From positions 1-31,852 of IMG/VR virus record IMGVR_UViG_3300031949_000128: 31,852 nt of DNA; one strand, given 5' to 3'. The notes under the pieces are model-generated. The model was not told the origin of the DNA. It saw only the letters and a list, made by a program, of their open reading frames with translations, and made no database searches. Position numbers and translations under genes: made by a program. The DNA is from a virus (lineage: Duplodnaviria; Caudoviricetes). Shown in pieces: positions 10,908 through 31,852 of this stretch; the first letter of the stretch is position 1, and the number at the start of each line of letters is the position of its first letter.

Positions 10908-11315
10908 CTAGACTTCCGTCACCGCGCCCGTCGTCTGCAGGATCACCTCGACGCCGTGAAAGGCGCCCTTGACCGGCTTGCGGCTGATCTTCGACAGCCA
11001 GCATTCCACGCTGGAGGTCTTACCAGACTTCCAGGTGATCAGCAGCGTCGAACTCGCCGCCACGCCGACCAGGTTCAGCGCGACGCCGTTCAGGCTGGCC
11101 GCGGCGTCGTCATACGGCCCCCTGAGCGTGACCTGGCCGGCCCGCTTCAGCCCTACCGGGGCGTGCGCCTCGTCGTCGTCTCCCGCCGCCGTCACGTCCT
11201 GGAGGACCATCTCGCGCTCCAGCCCGTCGATCTCCGTGACATAGGCGCTGATGTCCGCCGGCGAAGTCGGGTTATCCAGACTGATCGCCAGAACGTCCCA
11301 TCCTACTCGGGCCAT
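10908..11315 (-). CDS. Tail tube protein paralog B (135 aa)
   Basis: DISAYVTEID, PVGLKR and LQTTGAVT motifs. Strong SD GAGGAGG. Aligns by eye to the N-terminal domain of the upstream gene. Confidence 0.75.
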   Translation of the reverse strand: MARVGWDVLAISLDNPTSPADISAYVTEIDGLEREMVLQDVTAAGDDDEAHAPVGLKRAGQVTLRGPYDDAAASLNGVALNLVGVAASSTLLITWKSGKTSSVECWLSKISRKPVKGAFHGVEVILQTTGAVTEV

Positions 11316-11391: not shown

Positions 11392-12126
11392 TTAGCCGCG
11401 CGCGAACCCTACGACGAACGTCACGCTCTGGCCCGATCCCGAACCCCCGTAGGCCCACGAGCTGGCCAAGTGGCGATTAATTACCCCCGCGACCGTCAGC
11501 CGCTGGCCCGCCGGCGCCGCCGTGATCGCCGTGAACGCGATCAGGTCCGCGTAGGTCACATCGTCCGCGGAATGCCGGACCTTCAGCGCCACGTTCGTGT
11601 AGCCGCCCAGCGTGAGCTGCGACACCTCCGCGTACCCGGCGCCGCCGTTGGCGCTCGACCCCAGGTTGTCCACGGAGCTCGCGCCCTCGGTGTTCCCTGC
11701 CGTCGTCTCCTGCGTGTGCGCGTGCAGGATGATCCCCTCGTCCACCGGCCCCGTCACCTGGTACTCCGCCTCCGCCTTGTGCAGCGTTCCCTTGCTGGCG
11801 AGCCGCCGGTACTTCGTCGTGATCGCCCCGGCCCAGCCGATGAACTTCTTGCCGATCGTGTTCCCCTCCAGGGCGATCGCGGCCGTCCTCTGGGCGAAGG
11901 CGACCAAGTGATCGTGCACGGAGTTGGCGGCGTCGTCGAAGAATCCGCGCTGGCTCAGCGTGCCGCGCTTCAGCCCCACCGGCAGCCAGGCCTCGTTGGC
12001 GTCGCCGAGCACGGTGTTGTCCTCCAGCACGACCTCACGCTCCGTGTCGATCTCGGTGAGCGTGCTGAGGATGCTCCGGCCGTCGAAGAGGGCGAACCCT
12101 ACGTCTGGACTACCCTTGCGCGTCAT
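11392..12126 (-). CDS. Tail tube protein paralog A with C-terminal beta-sandwich extension (244 aa)
   Basis: SD GGAGGAGG before ATG 12126. TEIDTEREVVLEDNTVLGD..PVGLKRG tube-like N-domain plus about 120 extra residues. Confidence 0.75.
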   Translation of the reverse strand: MTRKGSPDVGFALFDGRSILSTLTEIDTEREVVLEDNTVLGDANEAWLPVGLKRGTLSQRGFFDDAANSVHDHLVAFAQRTAAIALEGNTIGKKFIGWAGAITTKYRRLASKGTLHKAEAEYQVTGPVDEGIILHAHTQETTAGNTEGASSVDNLGSSANGGAGYAEVSQLTLGGYTNVALKVRHSADDVTYADLIAFTAITAAPAGQRLTVAGVINRHLASSWAYGGSGSGQSVTFVVGFARG

Positions 12127-15078: not shown

Positions 15079-16047
15079 TTACGTCTGGACCAGTTCGAGC
15101 ACGACCGGCGTGCTGTTCAGGGCCGAATTGAGGTCGGCCGTGTTGTCCTCCAGGTCGGTGGCGTCGAACACGACGGTCGGCGCCGTCCCTTCGAGCACGT
15201 TGTCCAGGTAGGCTGCCCGTAGCGTGTTCCGGGCCAGGCGGTGGCCGATGCCGATCACGTCGCCGAAGCCGATCGCCGTCGTCGCCCCGGTGCCGTCGTG
15301 GGCGGGGATCGTCACGCTGGTGATCGTCTTGAACGCCTTCGCTCCCGCGACCGTGCCTGCGGTGTTCACCGTGAACGCGGGTAGCGTCTCCGTGATCGCC
15401 TGGTCCTCAGCATTCGTGCCCGCGACGATGACCTGGATCGCCTTGATGTCGGCGGCCGTGCCGCCCGCCGTCGCCGTGATGTTGCGCGGCACCTCGGGCG
15501 TGTTCAGGCCCGTCGTGATGACCTGCTGAACGCCCGTATCGGTCACCGCCGCCAGGATGCCGTCCGTATCCGCTACGGCCGGTGCGCCCGCCGCCCCGAT
15601 GGACGTTGTAGCGCCCGTGCCGTCGTGCGCGGGGATCGTCACGCTCGTCACCTTCGAGAAGACCTGGACGCCCGTCACGGTTCCTGCCGTGTTCACCGTG
15701 AAGGCGGGCAGCACTTCTGTCAGTGCTTCACCCTTCGCGCCCAGGCCGACGATGGTCACCGTGATCGCCTTAATGTCCGCTGCTGTCCCGCCCGCCGTCG
15801 CGGTAATGCGCCGCGGCCGGTCAAACGGGTTGATGCCAGTCGTGATCACCTGCTGCGCGCCGGTGTCCGTTACCGCTGCCAGGATCGCCGCCACGCCCAG
15901 GGCCGATGCCCCGATGGTGTCAGCCAGGACGTTCTGCCGGGCGCCGGGGATGACCACACCGCCCTCAATGATCGCGGCACGCACCATCGCCCCGATGAGC
16001 CAGAACAGCGCCAGCCAGACGATCCCCTTCGTAAGCTGCTTCCTCAT
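15079..16047 (-). CDS. Putative head decoration/structural protein with two 109-aa repeats and a hydrophobic N-terminal leader
   Basis: Follows the major capsid gene. ILAAVTDTG...TSVTIPAHDGTGATT occurs twice, 327 nt apart. Strong SD. Confidence 0.7.
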   Translation of the reverse strand: MRKQLTKGIVWLALFWLIGAMVRAAIIEGGVVIPGARQNVLADTIGASALGVAAILAAVTDTGAQQVITTGINPFDRPRRITATAGGTAADIKAITVTIVGLGAKGEALTEVLPAFTVNTAGTVTGVQVFSKVTSVTIPAHDGTGATTSIGAAGAPAVADTDGILAAVTDTGVQQVITTGLNTPEVPRNITATAGGTAADIKAIQVIVAGTNAEDQAITETLPAFTVNTAGTVAGAKAFKTITSVTIPAHDGTGATTAIGFGDVIGIGHRLARNTLRAAYLDNVLEGTAPTVVFDATDLEDNTADLNSALNSTPVVLELVQT

Positions 16048-20266: not shown

Positions 20267-21870
20267 ACCGCCACCCACGGCACCGGCTGCCCCGCCCCCG
20301 CCGCGATCGCGTCCGTGCGCGCCTCCCACGACAGGGCCGCCGCCATCGCCCCGTCGATTTTGTGCGGCGAGTCGGGCCGTTCCTTGCAGATCACATAGAG
20401 ACGCTCACCCTCGCCGTCACGCAGGTTCGTCACCCGGCGGCAGGCGTTCCCGATGTGCCGCGCCAGGTCCTCATTTCCGTCGTGCGTCAGCTCCCCGGAC
20501 TGGATCGCCGTAGCGAAGTCCTGAAGCGACGCCGCCATCTGCCCCAGCCGGTTCGTCCGCCACTCCATCACCCGGTCGCCCCAGCGCGCATGCCAGGAAG
20601 CCAGCCAGCCCTCCCACCAGTAAGGGTCCGCGTACATCCGCCAGACCTCCCAGCGTTCGAAGGCGGCCGTCACGATGGCGTCCACCTCGCGCTCTGGCAC
20701 CGCCCACTCGGCCGCGCCCAGGGGCCGCTCCCACAGGCCAAGCAGCCACTGGTAACCGGTCTCAACGTGGGTCCCGACGAGCGCCGTCGCGTCGTCGTAG
20801 CGCGCGCCGTCAAAGCCCAGCGTTATCAGTTCGCCGTCGGCGATGACCACGCCCGGCCGCGCCAGCTCCCTCCAGCGCATGGCGTCGAACGCCTTGGCGG
20901 AACCCTTAACAAGCCTGTTGGTCCAGACCTGCTCCCAGTGGGCCCGGTCTGTTTGAGGGTCACGCCAAAGCTCGATGATGCTGTCGATGTCGGACCAGGG
21001 AGCCGCCGGGCCACGCGCTTCGATGGCGGCCGCCCGCGCCCCTTTCTCAGTGCTCACGTCGTGGCGAGCGCTCGCCTCACGGTGGAAGAAGAAGAGACGT
21101 GAGTCCTTCAGTCGTCCCTCAGCGACCGCCCGCGCGTAGTCCATGGTTCCCTCTGCCACCGACCCCGACCCCGGTTCCGGTGCCGTTGTTGTCTCCAGAC
21201 TCCAGGCATCCGCCTCCCGTCGCTTTGGGATATTCGCCAGCATGATCCGATGTGTTCGAACCATGCGCGGGAGGGTAAAGAGCCAGGTTTCGTCAAAATG
21301 TTGCCAACTCGTCCGGGCACCTTCCCTGGCGCCGGGCGCTGTCGCTAGGGCCTCTGCCTTGCCATCCCCGCCCTTGCGCATAATGCGCTCCAGGCCGATG
21401 TCGAAGTCACCTGCCAGGCGTCCCTCCGAGAGGATCACCAACAGCGCACCAAACGCTAATTCTTCGGTCGTCTGTTCTGTGTACCCAACCATCGGCAGAT
21501 AAGGATCGCGAACTGGCCCGCCCACAGGCTGCGTAGGGTCGCCACGCACCCCCCAGCCGACACAGCGGACTGGCCCATCCCGATGAAGTTCTACGGCCGC
21601 TATCAAGGCCGCCTTTTCGGTCTTCGCCGTCCCTTTGGCGCTAGACAGCCCGACGCGCTTGAACCGCCGCCTGCCAGCGTTGGGATCATCCCGCGGATAG
21701 ACTTCGTACATGCGGTAGATCAGAGCCCGCGTCTCATCGTCCAGTCGCACGGGCTCGCCCCGGATGTCACCTGGTCCATGAACCAGATAGGACTCGATGA
21801 ACTCGCAGACCTGCGGCCCCAGCGTCGGCCAAGGCTCCTCCTCCAGAGACGGCACGCAGAGGACCGTCAC
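20263..21870 (-). CDS. terL: Terminase large subunit (535 aa)
   Basis: Walker A-like AKGTAKTE, Walker B-like HFDET, nuclease LGFDGA..DATAL, YADPY and KIDGAMA. GTGA overlap start. Confidence 0.95.
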   Translation of the reverse strand: MTVLCVPSLEEEPWPTLGPQVCEFIESYLVHGPGDIRGEPVRLDDETRALIYRMYEVYPRDDPNAGRRRFKRVGLSSAKGTAKTEKAALIAAVELHRDGPVRCVGWGVRGDPTQPVGGPVRDPYLPMVGYTEQTTEELAFGALLVILSEGRLAGDFDIGLERIMRKGGDGKAEALATAPGAREGARTSWQHFDETWLFTLPRMVRTHRIMLANIPKRREADAWSLETTTAPEPGSGSVAEGTMDYARAVAEGRLKDSRLFFFHREASARHDVSTEKGARAAAIEARGPAAPWSDIDSIIELWRDPQTDRAHWEQVWTNRLVKGSAKAFDAMRWRELARPGVVIADGELITLGFDGARYDDATALVGTHVETGYQWLLGLWERPLGAAEWAVPEREVDAIVTAAFERWEVWRMYADPYWWEGWLASWHARWGDRVMEWRTNRLGQMAASLQDFATAIQSGELTHDGNEDLARHIGNACRRVTNLRDGEGERLYVICKERPDSPHKIDGAMAAALSWEARTDAIAAGAGQPVPWVAV

Positions 21871-22310
21871 TTCACGGCCCTCAGCCGTGCGCGCGGGTCG
21901 CCCGTCGCCGCTACTGGTCCCGATCTGCGCTGTGGCGCCGGGCTCTCCTCCTCCGGCTGCCTGATCGTCCATTCAAGGCGCCGCCGGTCGATGGGCGTCA
22001 GCCCGAACGCCAGGCGTTGTTGACGGATCTCCGCCGCCAGCGCCGTGGTCGGCTCTCTCCAGAAGCGGTCCACCAGCTCGGCCAGGATATAGAGCTGGTG
22101 GACATCCGCCTCCAGGAAGCGCGGCGCCATCGGGCTCCGCCAGATGTCCTCCCACCAGGCTCGCGTCAGGTTCGTCCACGTCCGGCGCCTCGGTCGGCGC
22201 GGCAGCGCCGGTCCCTCAGCGAGCGGCGCTTCTGGCTCCAGATCAGCGGCCGTCACTGTCCGATTCCGCCGCTGGCGGACCTGCGGGTCCTTCGGCTGCG
22301 GTCCCCTCAC
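21867..22310 (-). CDS. terS: Terminase small subunit
   Basis: RGPQPK..RQRRN, WWEDIWRSPMA and AFGLTPIDRRRLEW motifs. Directly upstream of TerL. Confidence 0.88.
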   Translation of the reverse strand: MRGPQPKDPQVRQRRNRTVTAADLEPEAPLAEGPALPRRPRRRTWTNLTRAWWEDIWRSPMAPRFLEADVHQLYILAELVDRFWREPTTALAAEIRQQRLAFGLTPIDRRRLEWTIRQPEEESPAPQRRSGPVAATGDPRARLRAVK

Positions 22311-24268: not shown

Positions 24269-24831
24269 TACACGTTCGGGATGTGGCCCTTGCGGGGGCC
24301 GTGCCCGATGGGGGTGTTGCGGGCGGCGTAGACCGACCAGCCCGCCTTGGCCCGCTGCCCTACGAGCCGCACATCTTGGCCTCGCTCGGTTCGATTGTAC
24401 GCTCTCTTACTGGCCCTGACCTTGTCCGGATACACCGCGCGGTATTGAGCCATGTATGCGCGCATATACGGCCGGCTGTCCCATTCTCTGGGGCGTCTGC
24501 CGTCACTGCGGGAATACGACAGGGCGGGAACCTTCATCAGGCTGCCCTTCGCATATTTCCATCCTTGCTCACGGCAGCCGAGGCAAATAGGCCACTTAGC
24601 GCGGGAGACACCTCCATTGTTCCGAATCATTTCCACCAAGAACCACTGGAGACAACGCCCACATCGGGCCTCCGGCTTCCTCCAATCAATCGGGCGCAGC
24701 TTTAGATAGCGATTTGTTCTTCGGAGCTTGCTGGCGCATTTGCGGCATCGCGGGCTTCGGCGCGTGTATGAAGGATAGGAAGAGTAAGCGCGAGGCTTCC
24801 CGCAGTCGGGGCAGCGGGCAGGCGGCTTCAC
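24268..24831 (-). CDS. Basic zinc-finger protein with four CxxC pairs (187 aa)
   Basis: GTGA overlap start. CPDC, CRKC, CGRC, CLGC and a YMRAYMAQYRA helix. No nuclease motif. Confidence 0.7.
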   Translation of the reverse strand: MKPPARCPDCGKPRAYSSYPSYTRRSPRCRKCASKLRRTNRYLKLRPIDWRKPEARCGRCLQWFLVEMIRNNGGVSRAKWPICLGCREQGWKYAKGSLMKVPALSYSRSDGRRPREWDSRPYMRAYMAQYRAVYPDKVRASKRAYNRTERGQDVRLVGQRAKAGWSVYAARNTPIGHGPRKGHIPNV

Positions 24832-25889
24832 TCCGGCATCTGCCTCCACTCCCTGCCGTCCAGCAGCCGCCCGCCGCTCGTGGGGTGCGGGCCGCCCCAC
24901 TGCTTGAAGAAAAAGGGGATGCCCGCCGCGACGCACTGGTCCCGCAGGCTCCGCACCCGCTCCAGCGCCTGTGGCTTCGGGCACCAGTGACCCGCCCAAA
25001 GCTCGGACAACTCTTCGCCAAGGCGCTCCGCCAAGGCGAGCAGTTTCATGGCCGTGCTCGCAGGAGGCCCGTCCGGCCAATGATGATGTGCTTGATCGTT
25101 GCGACCCTCTTCGCATTCCATCCGATGACGGTCGCAGCAGTGCCAGCAGCGCTCGACCAGCTTCCGTTCGGCGCGGCCCGGCCCGCTCTCTCCGCCCACG
25201 ATCACCCACGAGATGCGGGCTCCGGCTTGGCAGTCGCACCGCCGCCCATCCTCGTAGACGAACAGACACCCGCGCTCTCGGTGATGAAATTCCTTGGGAT
25301 GACCACACGGGTCTCGGAGCCACTTCCGCAAGTCCAGCGGCCCCAGCAGCGGCTCGCAGGACAGAAAGCGCACGGCGGCGGGTGTGTCCAGCAGCACCGG
25401 GATGCGCTCGTCCGCCCAGTGCTGGTTCTCCACCGAGACGCCCAGATGGACGTTGGGCAGGGGCCATGTGCCGCCGCCCGCGACTCGCTCTCGGAAGTGT
25501 GAATTCGTCAGAATAGCCCGCATTCGTTCGGGGCGCTTCGTGAGCACCTGAAACGTGTGGCGCCGGGCGGACAGCATCGTCCCGAACACGCGGTCGATGA
25601 AGACGTCCGGCACGTCCTCGTGGAACAGATCGCTCATGCTGTCCACGAAGACGAGCCTCGGCTTCTTCCAACGCAGCGGCAAGTCCAGCAGGTCGGGGTG
25701 AACCGTCAGCCCGAAGCCGGGGCCACTAGCTGGCCCGCCGTCCTTCTGGTAGCGCGGATTCCCCGCCGCCTTGAGCCGCTTCGCCATCGCCAGGGCATAG
25801 CAATTGGCACAGCCGGGACTCACGCGGTCGCAGCCCGTGGTTGGATTCCAGGTCGCTTCCGTCCAGGAGATTGCGCTCTGCTCGCTCAC
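24828..25889 (-). CDS. Phage gp37/gp68 family protein (DUF5131, three-Cys motif)
   Basis: ISWTEATWNPTTGCDRVSPGCANCYA, FVDSMSDLFH, FQVLTKRPER, FLSCEPLLG, WVIVGGESG and PFFFKQWGG. Confidence 0.95.
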   Translation of the reverse strand: MSEQSAISWTEATWNPTTGCDRVSPGCANCYALAMAKRLKAAGNPRYQKDGGPASGPGFGLTVHPDLLDLPLRWKKPRLVFVDSMSDLFHEDVPDVFIDRVFGTMLSARRHTFQVLTKRPERMRAILTNSHFRERVAGGGTWPLPNVHLGVSVENQHWADERIPVLLDTPAAVRFLSCEPLLGPLDLRKWLRDPCGHPKEFHHRERGCLFVYEDGRRCDCQAGARISWVIVGGESGPGRAERKLVERCWHCCDRHRMECEEGRNDQAHHHWPDGPPASTAMKLLALAERLGEELSELWAGHWCPKPQALERVRSLRDQCVAAGIPFFFKQWGGPHPTSGGRLLDGREWRQMPE

Positions 25890-27582: not shown

Positions 27583-28467
27583 TCAGGCGGTCTGCGATGC
27601 GGGCGCCTCCTCGATGCGGTTGCCTTCGCGGTCGACTTCATAGAGTGCCCGGCAGCGCCGTGCCTTGATCTTGTCGGGATAGTCGGGCCGGGCGTGGACC
27701 ACGATATCCGCCACGGCGACCTCGCAGGCGACGTAGCGATCGCCCTCGTTCTCGCGGAAGAGGTCGCAGGCCGCTGGCTCACCGCAGAAATGCAGCCCGC
27801 CACCGCACTCATGGTTGCCGCCGTCCCAATCGGATGCCTCAACGTCCGTGCCAGGCACGTAGCGGACGCCGTGCTGCGTCTCGAACTCCGGGCCCGTTCG
27901 CTTGTAGAGGATCGCCTTACCGCGGCTAACCTTCGCACCGACGGCCTTCAGCCAGGCCTTCGGGTCGGTGCTCTGCTCGAACGCCTGAACGACCAGCAGG
28001 CCGCTGACCTTCGCGTTCGGCGAGCGGCGGATGGCTACTGCGAGGGGACCTTTGGCCACGACGTGGGCGCTCCCCCGGGCCTCGACGTGGGCGCTCCCCC
28101 AGGCCTCGACGTGGGCGCTCTCCCAGGCCTCGACGTGGGCGCTCCCCCAGGCCTCGACGTGGGCGCTCCCCCGGGCCACGACGTGGGCGCTCTCCCAGGC
28201 CTCGACGTGGGCGCTCTCCCAGGCCTCGACGTGGGCGCTCTCCCAGGCCTCGACGTGGGCGCTCCCCCGGGCCACGACGTGGGCGCTCTCCCGGGCCACG
28301 ACGTGGGCGCTCCCCCGGGCCACGACGTGGGCGCTCCCCCGGGCCACGACGTGGGCGCTCCCCCGGGCCACGACGTGGGCGCTCTCCCAGGCCACCTCAA
28401 AGTCCGTGGTGGTCAGGCAGACGTAGCAAAAGAGCTTCTCGATATCGGGCTTCGGTTCTTTCGTCAT
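27583..28467 (-). CDS. Octapeptide-repeat (beta-solenoid-like) protein with a C-terminal CGGGLHF domain
   Basis: 14 x A(W/R)(E/G)SAHV(V/E), then YKRT..Y.PG..CGGGLHFC..KIKARRC. Confidence 0.85.
   Translation of the reverse strand: MTKEPKPDIEKLFCYVCLTTTDFEVAWESAHVVARGSAHVVARGSAHVVARGSAHVVARESAHVVARGSAHVEAWESAHVEAWESAHVEAWESAHVVARGSAHVEAWGSAHVEAWESAHVEAWGSAHVEARGSAHVVAKGPLAVAIRRSPNAKVSGLLVVQAFEQSTDPKAWLKAVGAKVSRGKAILYKRTGPEFETQHGVRYVPGTDVEASDWDGGNHECGGGLHFCGEPAACDLFRENEGDRYVACEVAVADIVVHARPDYPDKIKARRCRALYEVDREGNRIEEAPASQTA
28057..28392 (-). repeat. Tandem repeat, 14 x 24 bp
   Basis: Unit GCC YGG GRG AGC GCC CAC GTC GWG, variable at only three positions. Confidence 0.97.
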
Positions 28468-28649
28468 GTCGTACTTCCCGTCATCTGCGACAAGGCCCGA
28501 AGTCGCCCCGTCTGCCGGTTGTGCCAGGCTCCATAGACCGCCGCCACACTGCGTCCCGGCAAGGAGGCTGCGATCTCACGCCAAGTGTGGCCCTCCTCGC
28601 GCAGCCGCCAAAGGGTCAGCAGCTCCGCGCGGGCCCAGCGCCTGAGCAT
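28464..28649 (-). CDS. Small HTH/Myb-like DNA-binding protein
   Basis: RRWARAELLTL..LREEGHTWREIAASLPGRSVAAV. Confidence 0.7.
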   Translation of the reverse strand: MLRRWARAELLTLWRLREEGHTWREIAASLPGRSVAAVYGAWHNRQTGRLRALSQMTGSTT

Positions 28650-29244
28650 TCATGCCATGCTTCGAGCGTTCGCCCGGCGGGATGAAGCCCGCCAGGTCGC
28701 TCTCCCGTATCCACCAGTTGCCCCACCTCTGCGCGGGCAGTAGACCCTTGCCGATCCAGGTGTTGACGGTGGAGTGATGCACAGACAGGAGACGACCGAC
28801 CTCCCCCGAACATAGGTAGCGGACTGTCCTCATATCGAGCGCCCAGGCCCGCAGACTCGGCTCCGTGATGAGCCCTGGCCTCCATACGTGCCAGTGGGCG
28901 GGGTTCTCAAGGAAGGTCAGGAGCTGCTCCCGGCTGACGTAGCGCTCGAAGTGGCGGCCTATTCTGGCTCCCCGCCTTGAACGCAGCCATCCACGCTTTA
29001 TCCAACAGGCCACCGTCTTCTGGCAGGACACCCCCATGAGCCGAGAGATACCCCGCTGCGTGCTTATCAGCTTTCGGCGGCAGGGGATGCCATGACGCTT
29101 GCGGGCGAGGCAGACAGCGTTGACGGTCTTACCGAGGCGCACCGCGATAGCATCATCGGTCAAGCCTCTCGCCAGCAGTTCCTCCAATGCGAGTAGCCGA
29201 TCCGGTGTCCAGTTGGTCCGCCGAAGCCACTGCCCTTTAGGCAT
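28576..29244 (-). CDS. Multi-HTH DNA-binding protein (N-terminal HTH plus two excisionase/MerR-like HTHs)
   Basis: WTPDRL..GLTDDAIAVRLGKTVNAV; LMGVSCQKTVACWIKRGWL; YLCSGEVGRLLSVHHSTVNTWIGKGLLPA..WWIRESDL. Confidence 0.8.
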   Translation of the reverse strand: MPKGQWLRRTNWTPDRLLALEELLARGLTDDAIAVRLGKTVNAVCLARKRHGIPCRRKLISTQRGISRLMGVSCQKTVACWIKRGWLRSRRGARIGRHFERYVSREQLLTFLENPAHWHVWRPGLITEPSLRAWALDMRTVRYLCSGEVGRLLSVHHSTVNTWIGKGLLPAQRWGNWWIRESDLAGFIPPGERSKHGMNAQALGPRGAADPLAAARGGPHLA

Positions 29245-29410
29245 CCAGTTCCTCAGCGGGGTCCGGCTCTAAGCTGATTGTCTCGATGGCTCGCCCTTCC
29301 TTGGCCCATCGCGCCACGTCCTGCGCGGCATCCTTGTCGGCGACGGCGGCAGCGACAATTCGCCCGCATGTGTGGCGCGTAGCATAGATGGCTGGGTCGT
29401 TTGCGCTCAT
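29237..29410 (-). CDS. Small hypothetical protein (57 aa)
   Basis: TGATG overlap start, MSANDPAIYATRHTCGRIVAAAV. Confidence 0.65.
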   Translation of the reverse strand: MSANDPAIYATRHTCGRIVAAAVADKDAAQDVARWAKEGRAIETISLEPDPAEELDA

Positions 29411-30048
29411 CACGGCTGACAACTCCACGGTCGCCAGCCGCTTTCGCGCCACAACTCCCACGCCCAATCCGTGTTCACCTCCGGATCGCTCCAGCGCTCC
29501 CAGAAGCCGGCGAAACGATAGGCGTGGATGCTCGATATCTGGAACAGGCCAAAAGACTCACCCGTCCACGAGACGGCGTCGGGCCGCAGCGTGCTCTCGC
29601 AGCGGGCGACGGCCAACGCCTCCGCGCAGGGCCAAGGCAGGGAGCAGATCGCATCCGCTACCGCACCCGCCGCGTCCGGGGGTACGTCAGGCCGTAGTAG
29701 TTCTGCCACGTCTCGAAGCGGGCCATCTGCTCCAGCGTTGGCGGCTCCAGGCGCAGCTCCATCAGCCGCGCCTCCACCTTCGCCCGGTGCCCGTTCGCGG
29801 CCATCCGCGTCAAGAGCCAGACGAAGCCAGCTATCGCCACCAGCCCGAGCACGAACGCCGCCTCCGGGGTCCGGCCCTGCGCGCCGTAGAACGCTATCCG
29901 GTCTGCCCAGTAGCCCAGCCACGCGATGCTCACGAGCAGGGCTTGGAGTATGAACGCTGTCACGATCCCACGCATGTTCGTCTCCTCTGATCCCGCCGAG
30001 CCCCGCCAGTAGCAGCGCCACCGCGAGCCCGACAAGGACGCTTCTCAG
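29410..30048 (-). CDS. Membrane-anchored or secreted lytic transglycosylase (SLT/lysozyme-like, about 212 aa), probable CTG start
   Basis: C-terminal AVARCES..PDA..SFGLFQI..DPEVN..A..GWRPWSC. In-frame hydrophobic N-terminus (M)RSVLVGLAVALLLAGLGG begins at a CTG overlapping the upstream TGA. Confidence 0.75.
   Translation of the reverse strand: MRSVLVGLAVALLLAGLGGIRGDEHAWDRDSVHTPSPAREHRVAGLLGRPDSVLRRAGPDPGGGVRARAGGDSWLRLALDADGRERAPGEGGGAADGAAPGAANAGADGPLRDVAELLRPDVPPDAAGAVADAICSLPWPCAEALAVARCESTLRPDAVSWTGESFGLFQISSIHAYRFAGFWERWSDPEVNTDWAWELWRESGWRPWSCQP
29658..29975 (-). CDS. Two-TM membrane protein nested in the transglycosylase gene (105 aa)
   Basis: SD AGAGGAG before ATG 29975. Mostly G/C-ending codons. 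Two hydrophobic helices. Confidence 0.7.
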   Translation of the reverse strand: MRGIVTAFILQALLVSIAWLGYWADRIAFYGAQGRTPEAAFVLGLVAIAGFVWLLTRMAANGHRAKVEARLMELRLEPPTLEQMARFETWQNYYGLTYPRTRRVR

Positions 30049-30359
30049 ACGCGATCCCCGCCGCTAGGCTCCGCCGCCGCAGCCTTCCCGTTCCGCCCCA
30101 GGTGGTGAAGGACCGTCGAATGGTCCATGACGAACAGCTTGCCGATCGCTGTGAGCGGCAGGTTCGTCTCCTCCCGAATGCGCCGGATGGCGCACGAGCG
30201 GGCGTCCACCAGGTGACGCTGCCGCCCCTTGCCGAAGATGTCCTGGGCGGGAATACGGTGCTCGCGGGCGACCTCTTCCACGATGTGCACCGCCTGCGTC
30301 TCCGGGCTGGACATCGCGCCGCAGAACCGGCACGCTCCCTGTAGCGCCTGCTGCGTCAT
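30045..30359 (-). CDS. DnaA C-terminal (domain IV) HTH-only protein with N-terminal CxxC
   Basis: IVEEVAREHRI..DIFGKGRQRHLVDARS.A...LPLTAIGKLF.MDHSTVLH resembles the DnaA domain IV signature. Confidence 0.85.
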   Translation of the reverse strand: MTQQALQGACRFCGAMSSPETQAVHIVEEVAREHRIPAQDIFGKGRQRHLVDARSCAIRRIREETNLPLTAIGKLFVMDHSTVLHHLGRNGKAAAAEPSGGDRV

Positions 30360-30988
30360 CGGACGGTCGCGTTCGCCAGCGCCTTCACGCGGAAGTCATC
30401 GTCGGCGAAGCTGGGCATCAGCCCGCCGTAGAACGTCCCCAGCGGCGTCGAAAACGGTATGGCGCTATGGCCCGTTGGGTCAGCGAACTCTAGGTGGACG
30501 AGCACTTCGCCGTCCCGCTCGACGGCGCGGCCCAAGTCCGAGATCATCAAGGCACTGACCGTGACGCGGACGGCTCCCTCCTCACCCCTCGGCTTCATGC
30601 CGTCGAAGTCAGGGAAGTCGATCTCCTCTCGCGCGACGTAGACGGAGTGATAGTCCGTTCGAAGGCGGCAGGTCTTCGCCCGAACCGACACGGTTACGGC
30701 CAAGTGCTTCAACTTCTTCTGTGAGATGCCCTCCAGGCAGGCCACAAGAGCGCTGACGGGCAGCACCAGCTCGTCCGGCGGCCCCTTCGGCTTCACAAGG
30801 TACTGCACCTCCTGACAGGCCCAGCGCATGCCGTCCGTGGCGTAACCGCGGAGCATGTCGACGTCCGTGCGCAGGCAGAGAGAGTGGAACATCGGCATCG
30901 CCGAGTCGGGGTCGACGATGGGCTTGAGGCGCTTGACCAGGACCGAGAGGTCGTAGGCGCCGACTTCGAAACGGTAGGTACGCATCAT
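30356..30988 (-). CDS. DNA polymerase III beta sliding clamp-like protein (about two domains, 210 aa)
   Basis: YATDGMRWA, IDFPDF and terminal GLMP motifs resemble DnaN domains. Confidence 0.7.
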   Translation of the reverse strand: MMRTYRFEVGAYDLSVLVKRLKPIVDPDSAMPMFHSLCLRTDVDMLRGYATDGMRWACQEVQYLVKPKGPPDELVLPVSALVACLEGISQKKLKHLAVTVSVRAKTCRLRTDYHSVYVAREEIDFPDFDGMKPRGEEGAVRVTVSALMISDLGRAVERDGEVLVHLEFADPTGHSAIPFSTPLGTFYGGLMPSFADDDFRVKALANATVR

Positions 30989-31191
30989 GCCACCCTCTTG
31001 AGCCGCGTCCAGTTACGGCGGTTCGTCTCCAACTGCCGGATGAAGCGCTCGCGCTTCCGGTCGCACGGGGCGCAGGCGTAGACGCTGCCGCCCGTCTGCT
31101 CCGGGCGCGGATCGCCGTCCGCGCAGTCGGGCCGGAACGGGCGCAGCGAGTCCTCGTGGTGGCGGCGTCCGCAGAACGAGCAGCGGTTCAT
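30985..31191 (-). CDS. Small zinc-finger protein (68 aa)
   Basis: CSFC...CAPC. ATGA overlaps at both ends. Confidence 0.7.
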   Translation of the reverse strand: MNRCSFCGRRHHEDSLRPFRPDCADGDPRPEQTGGSVYACAPCDRKRERFIRQLETNRRNWTRLKRVA

Positions 31192-31673
31192 GCCGTCCCC
31201 TCGTCGCCGGCGTCCGGCGGAACATGGGATTGCCTCAGGGAATAGCGGAGCGAGGCAATGAGGCTTCTCTCCTCATCGCTGAACTGAACCCCGTCATATC
31301 CCAACCGTCCAAGAAGACGGTGAGCGCCAGCTATCAAACTCAGGGGGTCATTGAGATTTACATTGGCCATCTCAGCCCTGATTTGTCGACTCTCTTCGCG
31401 CCCCCGAAACTTCTCGTCCCTAATCCAGCGCTTCAGTTCGAGAATTTCTCTCTCCGCATGCCCCTTGGCGTAAATAGCCGAATGCCGCCAAGCCCAATAT
31501 TCCTCGCCGTCTAGCCTCTGCCCATCTGGATGGCGGCGATCTCGGTCGCCCAACTGGACCTCAATTTCCGACTTGCGCTGTTTCAGGAGGAGGAGTCTCT
31601 CTTCTGCCTCAATGAGAGACGCTGGCTCGATATAACGGTTCTGGCGTTCCGGCGTTGCCGTATCTATCGTCAT
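31188..31673 (-). CDS. Hypothetical helical protein (161 aa)
   Basis: ATGA overlap start with a GAGGAG SD. Lower GC than its neighbours. Confidence 0.7.
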   Translation of the reverse strand: MTIDTATPERQNRYIEPASLIEAEERLLLLKQRKSEIEVQLGDRDRRHPDGQRLDGEEYWAWRHSAIYAKGHAEREILELKRWIRDEKFRGREESRQIRAEMANVNLNDPLSLIAGAHRLLGRLGYDGVQFSDEERSLIASLRYSLRQSHVPPDAGDEGTA

Positions 31674-31852
31674 GCCTGCTCCTCGCCGCCCTGGTCGCGG
31701 TCCCACGCTTCGCCGGGCGCGGCTGGCGGCTCATCCTCCGGCGGCGGTGCGTCTTCGGCGCGCGCCTCCCACAGCGCCTCTTCCTCCGCGACCTCCGGCG
31801 GCACCCCGGCCTCGGCGTCGTGCTCGCGGGCCTCCCGCAACAGCATCTCCAT
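31670..31852 (-). CDS. Partial acidic protein (C-terminal end; may start outside the window)
   Basis: Open to the window edge, E/P/A-rich, stop overlaps the next ATG. Confidence 0.55.
   Translation of the reverse strand: MEMLLREAREHDAEAGVPPEVAEEEALWEARAEDAPPPEDEPPAAPGEAWDRDQGGEEQA

Follow-up and report, generated by a model that had tools for sequence, protein, structure and literature searches.

Complete out-of-frame nesting with an internal Shine-Dalgarno (SD) sequence is known from phiX174, in which gene B is nested in A and E in D. These are fixed pairs, whereas in the locus described here the inner content is exchangeable and may comprise as many as three genes in tandem. SAR endolysins follow a rule of a Gly/Ala-rich N-terminal anchor. 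In our locus, too, a weakly polar, Gly/Ala/Ser-rich N-terminal segment, which may be a cleaved signal or an uncleaved anchor, stands ahead of a wall enzyme (mean 40% in 34 loci); in the part of the source cited (PMC6139136), the SAR segment directly precedes the enzyme and the gene lies in the lysis cassette beside the pinholin, whereas here a 20-150-residue linker intervenes and the locus lies in the early region. The embedded spanins Rz/Rz1 are closer in layout. According to the same part of that source (PMC6139136), the inner gene is wholly inside the outer one in the +1 frame, and the outer gene encodes an N-terminal membrane segment and an extracytoplasmic part, as in our locus; Rz1, however, is a fixed lipoprotein partner that binds Rz, and the pair belongs to the lysis cassette. 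Here the inner product has no Cys or lipobox, the inner content varies (34 families, one to three genes at a time), an SLT_3 enzyme domain forms the end of the outer product, whereas Rz, a TM protein with coiled coils in the periplasm, is no enzyme, and the locus is an early-region one, outside the lysis cassette.

For the outer product, the kayvirus protein Tgl is a precedent, described as an early, secreted second lysin beside the main endolysin (PMC7150955). Tgl resembles our enzyme in having a signal peptide and a lytic-transglycosylase-type domain, in early expression and in being a second wall enzyme; its gene is a few genes from lysK, and the part of the source cited (PMC7150955) mentions neither a nested gene nor a near-cognate start. 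The two are likened here by architecture. Rpf and SLT_3 (PF18896) proteins also have a small lysozyme-like domain with C-E-S, G-x-x-Q and a terminal W-x-C, behind a leader and a low-complexity linker. Our enzyme differs from the Rpf domains in being phage-borne (17-26% identity in structural alignments) and in that its linker is a second reading of other genes. A full-text literature search, covering papers outside subscription and without their supplements, gave no description of a linker that houses a variable, multi-gene slot. Nested genes and secreted phage muramidases are each known already.

The muramidase locus and its setting

The window, i.e., the whole stretch of DNA analysed, is one virus record of 31,852 bases with 67% GC and genes nearly all on the minus strand. 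Its mid-part carries terminase, portal, capsid and tail genes, and its right end a group of small regulatory or replication-type genes. The muramidase locus (29410-30048) belongs to the latter group and is surrounded by HTH and clamp genes, with replication and methylase genes beside it. On one side lies a gene for a DnaA C-terminal-type HTH protein of 104 aa (30045..30359, minus strand; Pfam Bac_DnaA_C, E 6.9e-15), and on the other a small gene (29237..29413, minus strand), which by its sequence is coupled to the muramidase stop (GTG 29413 or ATG 29410), and then a second HTH gene. No sigma-70 promoter or terminator was found in 28500-31852. A separate GH25 endolysin is encoded at about 698-1498, near the left end of the window and some 28 kb from the locus, in agreement with an earlier note on this DNA, which had placed the locus in the early region, far from the lysis cassette.

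The enzyme frame runs on the minus strand from an in-frame TAG (30066-30064) through a CTG (30048-30046) to a TGA (29412-29410), with 212 codons from the CTG. The CTG (30046..30048), the putative near-cognate start of the muramidase gene, is six codons past the TAG, is preceded by GGGGA and overlaps the TGA of the upstream gene as CTGA. There is no ATG, GTG or TTG between the TAG and the hydrophobic stretch that follows; the first is GTG 30021, inside that stretch. Residues 1-19 (29992..30048) form a hydrophobic leader, either a signal peptide or an anchor (KD19 about 2.0). Residues 20-128 (29665..29991) are an Ala/Gly/Asp/Pro-rich linker of 109 residues, and residues 129-212 (29410..29664) an Rpf-like lysozyme-fold domain of 84 aa, with Glu151 at 29598-29596. 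The reading of leader, linker and SLT-like domain as one frame from CTG 30048, proposed in the earlier note, is borne out by the sequence and by a Pfam SLT_3 match.

The linker is read in the -1 frame of a nested gene (29658..29975, minus strand). An SD-like AGAGGAG (29982..29988) stands 6 nt before the nested ATG at 29975, and the gene ends at a TAG (29660-29658) where the catalytic domain begins. As the earlier note described, its product is a two-TM protein of 105 aa, encoded largely with G/C-ending codons (91% of third positions). The protein has no Cys, and its two hydrophobic segments have KD19 2.03 and 2.06.

That note had also cautioned that such an alternative frame often stays open by chance in high-GC DNA. 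Taken alone, the window agrees: the open frame is not significant against synonymous shuffles (P 0.21 with pooled codon usage, 0.44 with the window's own usage). The acidity of the linker is less easily reached by shuffles (P 0.011), and a shuffle both open and equally acidic less easily still (P 0.003).

Several other features of the window's minus strand were observed. The frame of the GH25 endolysin gene (698-1750) is open for 84 codons upstream of its likely ATG, across a 77-aa gene at 1501-1734. This extension has a GTG and an acidic, Gly-rich look and no hydrophobic leader, and is probably a chance-open -1 frame. A 294-aa protein (27583-28467; phrog_15773, E 1e-61) contains about 15 tandem 8-residue repeats, and the repeat keeps several other frames open. 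A phrog_2045 protein is encoded at 24828-25889; in two other virus genomes (G004, G005) the nested muramidase likewise has DUF5131 genes a few kb away, and these may be a recurrent neighbour. Past the capsid gene, a 322-aa protein (15079-16047) has a hydrophobic N-terminus and internal repeats and no PHROG match. Two adjacent genes (10908-11315 and 11392-12126) both match the major tail protein family phrog_10528. The gene directly before the large terminase, where the small terminase is expected (21867-22310), matches phrog_226, labelled minor tail protein (E 5.5e-30).

Relatives keep the enzyme frame open back to a leader

We collected 90 loci by patterns in the domain, not in the linker: eight viral, 80 of 171 confirmed metagenome matches and two from genomes. 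The window itself is one of them (L009). Wherever the upstream DNA sufficed, in 78/78 loci, the domain frame continues without a stop back to a hydrophobic leader (14-mer, KD 1.88 or more); in the remaining 12 of the 90 the frame runs off the contig without a stop, and no closed frame was seen. Among control genes of the same loci, the frame was open over 80 codons in 14/108, a hydrophobic segment lay upstream in 2/141, and none had both. The caution about chance openness, right for the window alone, is therefore removed by the relatives, none of which has a stop in the linker frame. Scanning viral contigs with the full frame of a single protein gave 122 candidate stretches, none of which was confirmed.

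Third-position GC and the cover by +1 ORFs divide the 78 loci into 54 with nested genes and 24 plain ones. At 90% identity the nested loci represent 34 distinct linkers, and at 70% identity 30. These 34 loci are related, with 17 in one weakly supported group, so that P values overstate their independence. Their linker frame has no stop in 3090 codons, where synonymous shuffles predict 57.5 and the control rate predicts 106; the zero depends in part on the way the limits of the linker were set, and the non-circular figure is the 78/78 above. Two loci classed as plain may be intermediates between plain and nested: L055, yet with an SD-preceded +1 ORF that covers half of its linker, and L064, yet with a CTG/A overlap. 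The Pro/Thr linker of L064 is presumably LysM-like. The leaders of five near-identical loci (L031, L032, L033, L035, L037) carry an Ala run of 5 to 9 codons, always in whole codons. One protein (P0004) has a beginning like the TM-type nested frame and the end of the enzyme domain; this could reflect a chimera made in read assembly or a natural fusion of the two frames.

In 34/34 loci the acidity of the linker exceeds that of its synonymous shuffles (0.086 vs -0.006; control genes, -0.089). Its Arg content is lower (7.6% vs 10.6%), and His and Cys are lower as well. T is never found at the third position before AA, AG or GA in nested genes (0/371), against 700/3949 in control genes. Sec transport is limited by arginine, according to the part of the source cited (PMC9110029), and an acidic, Arg-poor linker is thus the bias to be expected of an exported spacer. 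Translation of both frames, the leader-linker-domain one and that of the nested genes, is very likely.

The catalytic domain and its predicted role

The window protein matches Pfam SLT_3 (E 6e-8; 33.4 bits against a curated cut-off of 27) and SLT (E 1.7e-4). Across 58 aligned domains C22, E23, G39, Q42, W80 and C82 are invariant (C-E-S, G-x-x-Q, W-x-C). In the predicted domain model (pLDDT 97), the catalytic Glu is at the end of the first core helix (residues 13-24), followed by G-x-x-Q. Structural alignment of the model gave EtgA (Z 10.9, rmsd 2.2, 76 aligned) and Slt (Z 10.1, rmsd 2.0, 80 aligned), and the model also matches an insect lysozyme, MltE and RpfB. Foldseek returned the same families as the structural alignments, none at E <= 0.001. 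Among solved structures, RpfC is the best match by profile (E 1.6e-5); the Rpf transglycosylase family PF06737 did not match the window protein at E <= 0.1 and was listed for one of 18 relatives (P0035). By its modelled fold, the domain is a lysozyme-fold wall enzyme that has its catalytic Glu. We use "muramidase" loosely; a lytic transglycosylase proper is one that makes 1,6-anhydromuropeptides.

We read the locus, from its sequence, as likely to encode an exported, low-dose accessory muramidase whose linker is an exchangeable gene slot. Most ribosomes would leave on ending the upstream gene, and the small fraction that reinitiates at the overlapping CTG (in some relatives ATA) would translate the leader-linker-domain frame at a low level. 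The leader would route the protein through Sec; the acidic, arginine-poor linker would pass the channel and space the enzyme from the membrane, and the invariant Glu of the domain would serve to cleave glycan strands. Meanwhile, the nested gene or genes would be expressed at an ordinary level from the strong SD that follows the leader. Any small gene with a stop-free -1 frame could occupy the slot, which would probably be filled by recombination between the conserved flanks. The enzyme would be an early accessory lysin, loosening the wall ahead of the late GH25 endolysin.

The lysis reading is drawn from the kayvirus Tgl precedent, as far as the part of that source cited extends, and from the separate GH25 gene of the window. 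One other virus genome (G001) also has an amidase. A limited scan found no second endolysin in G004 and G005, and family searches in five virus records found none either, by a procedure so insensitive that it also missed the amidase of G001. Given the architecture and the near-cognate start, we put the accessory lysis role at about an even chance.

The same architecture could serve another role, in which the exported enzyme remodels the wall or releases muropeptides and so keeps the host growing or wakes it, as Rpf proteins do. The profile match to RpfC points this way, as do the place of the locus in the early region beside replication and methylase genes, a very weak start that would suit a non-lethal enzyme, and the related domains in 51/401 sampled genomes of Chloroflexota, the phylum of one of the genomes compared (G007). 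The fold, however, is matched not by Rpf alone but also by EtgA, c-type lysozyme and Slt. As an account of the locus as a whole we consider the Rpf-like role rather unlikely; once the architecture and the near-cognate start are granted, it is a tentative option, and superinfection exclusion, which the earlier note had raised along with wall remodelling, would be improbable.

Variety, structure and selection of the nested genes

The 54 nested loci hold 74 nested proteins in 34 single-linkage families. The number of nested ORFs in the 34 distinct loci is one in 20, two in 13 and three in one. The first nested start is 40-85 nt past the leader start in 34/34, and in the relatives, as in the window, an SD-like element and an ATG follow the leader, with comparable spacing. 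Tandem nested genes were joined in frame at 15/15 junctions (a search of the +1 frame only), nine of them a TAG directly followed by ATG, whereas 33/58 short junctions of control genes are -4 overlaps. Couplings of the -1 or -4 type would put the next gene into the enzyme frame, and nested tandems are thus joined in frame. Stops of nested genes are TAG in 31/33, against 21/147 in control genes; yet 11/33 genes of the window also end in TAG, and avoidance of an NTG restart is only a suggestion for this bias. At several loci the last nested ORF continues into the +1 frame of the domain, and its end, and sometimes its reality, is unsure.

The nested genes are under purifying selection. Over eight disjoint close pairs (10 were tried; one was dropped as too divergent and one as cut by its contig), dN/dS was 0.49 for the nested frame (P 1e-6), 1.27 for the enzyme frame of the same DNA and 0.17 for the domain. 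Among 49 nested proteins compared with PHROGs there was one strong match only, that of the nested protein of L060 to phrog_18063 (E 4e-25). Phages DrLupo and VarioGold each have an annotated, free-standing gene of this family, Mx1 has a match that is not annotated, and in 3/3 of these the -1 frame has stops. Since constraint falls on the nested gene (0.49 vs 1.27), and one family stands alone elsewhere, the linker is better seen as a passenger reading of real genes. For 26 nested proteins searched against Pfam, nothing was above the cut-off.

The window's nested protein could also be the dedicated functional partner of the muramidase, such as a holin-like or regulatory protein, as Rz1 is to Rz. 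Its family, with 31 of 74 proteins, is the largest of the nested ones, 24 of the 49 nested proteins are TM-like, and there is a weak Holin_2-3 match (E 0.077, below the cut-off). Against such a pair, the slot is filled by 34 families, 25 of the 49 proteins are not TM-like (10 of the 49 have CxxC), and six loci (L001, L002, L058, L060, L070, L090) have no TM-like nested gene; the phrog_18063 family lives alone in other phages with its -1 frame closed; and plain relatives have no nested gene at all. We therefore find a dedicated pair unlikely. The earlier note's interpretation is supported in that both frames are very likely genes and that leader and domain share a frame in every relative examined; a specialised pair on the Rz/Rz1 model is not supported, since the content of the slot varies.

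A homologue search with the window's nested protein returned only itself among four candidates, and its relatives came from the DNA loci; the alignment of its family has no conserved stretch. Members of one nested family occur at about 15 of the 34 distinct loci, and part of the slot content is inherited, not swapped. To return to the exchangeable slot, we somewhat favour a history in which small phage genes were recruited by recombination into the linker, up to three together, and then tuned at synonymous sites for a stop-free, acidic and secretable -1 frame, with the near-cognate start keeping the enzyme at about 1% of the level of its neighbours.

The putative start codon

No ATG, GTG or TTG lies within 25 codons before the leader in 21/32 distinct nested loci with upstream DNA, and 11/32 have a canonical start upstream of it. 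The enzyme-frame codon overlapped by the stop of a +1-frame upstream gene in these 32 loci is CTG in 16, ATA in six, GTG in one and ATG in none. The earlier note's suggestion of CTG as a near-cognate start is supported by this overlap; ATG or GTG as its counterpart in relatives, which that note had allowed for, was found once only, relatives having mostly CTG or ATA. The base before TGA is C in 16/17, against 16/109 in control genes, where A is the commonest (59/109). Four nested loci fetched afterwards (L130, L133, L137, L147) all have the CTG/A overlap, and five loci (L001, L002, L005, L048, L085) fit the overlap rule poorly. An in-frame stop directly before the CTG or ATA in four loci (L016, L026, L038, L085) pins the start. 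In E. coli, initiation at CUG and AUA reaches about 0.02-3% of that at AUG, according to the part of the source cited (10.1101/063800). These codon patterns make it probable that the muramidase start is near-cognate, CTG or ATA.

If instead the catalytic domain alone were translated, from an internal start at GTG 29709 or by restart at the nested TAG, the openness upstream would be a by-product of high GC. The frame is indeed often open by chance in shuffles of the window (P 0.21-0.44), the GH25 gene has its chance-open extension of 84 codons, and the enzyme stop is coupled to the next gene either way (a -4 coupling to the next start in 23/32 distinct nested loci). Against this, 78/78 loci are open to a hydrophobic leader, with an acidic bias in 34/34. 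GTG 29709, which the earlier note had named as a start that would remove the linker, has no SD, and an SD with a canonical start occurs within 20 codons of the domain in only 3/34. A domain of this disulfide type without a leader would presumably stay in the cytoplasm. We regard translation of the domain alone as very improbable. Alternatively, ribosomes could slip by -1 as they finish the upstream gene and so make a fusion protein; this gene mostly lies in the +1 frame and stops just ahead of the leader. Such a frameshift is highly improbable, as there is no conserved slippery heptamer, the upstream genes vary from about 35 to over 200 codons, and in the four loci with a stop directly before CTG or ATA the P-site tRNA could not re-pair.

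Distribution, host and significance

Plain relatives with ATG or GTG starts, and with leader, linker and domain in the same order as in nested loci, occur in other phages and in Chloroflexota genomes. Of the 401 Chloroflexota genomes sampled, 51 match; among the 30 loci returned, 28 are plain, one is nested (L090) and one is borderline. In a domain tree (85 columns, unrooted) nested and plain loci interleave, which means that nesting was gained or lost several times, or that domains recombine. A single origin of nesting is not supported, as this tree needs 11 changes, at least seven of them forced by supported branches. One nested locus is in an Ardenticatenales assembly, and relatives of the capsid at 43-45% were found in 3/301 genomes of Chloroflexota, the only phylum compared. 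A Chloroflexota host is plausible.

Standard annotation would miss an enzyme of this kind with its nested genes. The protein collection contains the nested protein of the contig, and two canonical-start versions of the enzyme that we looked up were both absent; in a search with the full-length protein, the enzyme itself was not among the matches listed. The locus thus marks an annotation blind spot. It also offers a comparative case of near-cognate starts (CTG, ATA), apparently retained to hold down the amount of a wall-cutting enzyme. The nested phage genes known so far come in fixed pairs. At this locus one inner gene can take the place of another, and a single outer gene thus samples dozens of unrelated inner ones. 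This is a natural series for the origin of overlaps and for the speed of adaptation at synonymous sites, in which members of the same gene family that are not nested can serve as controls.
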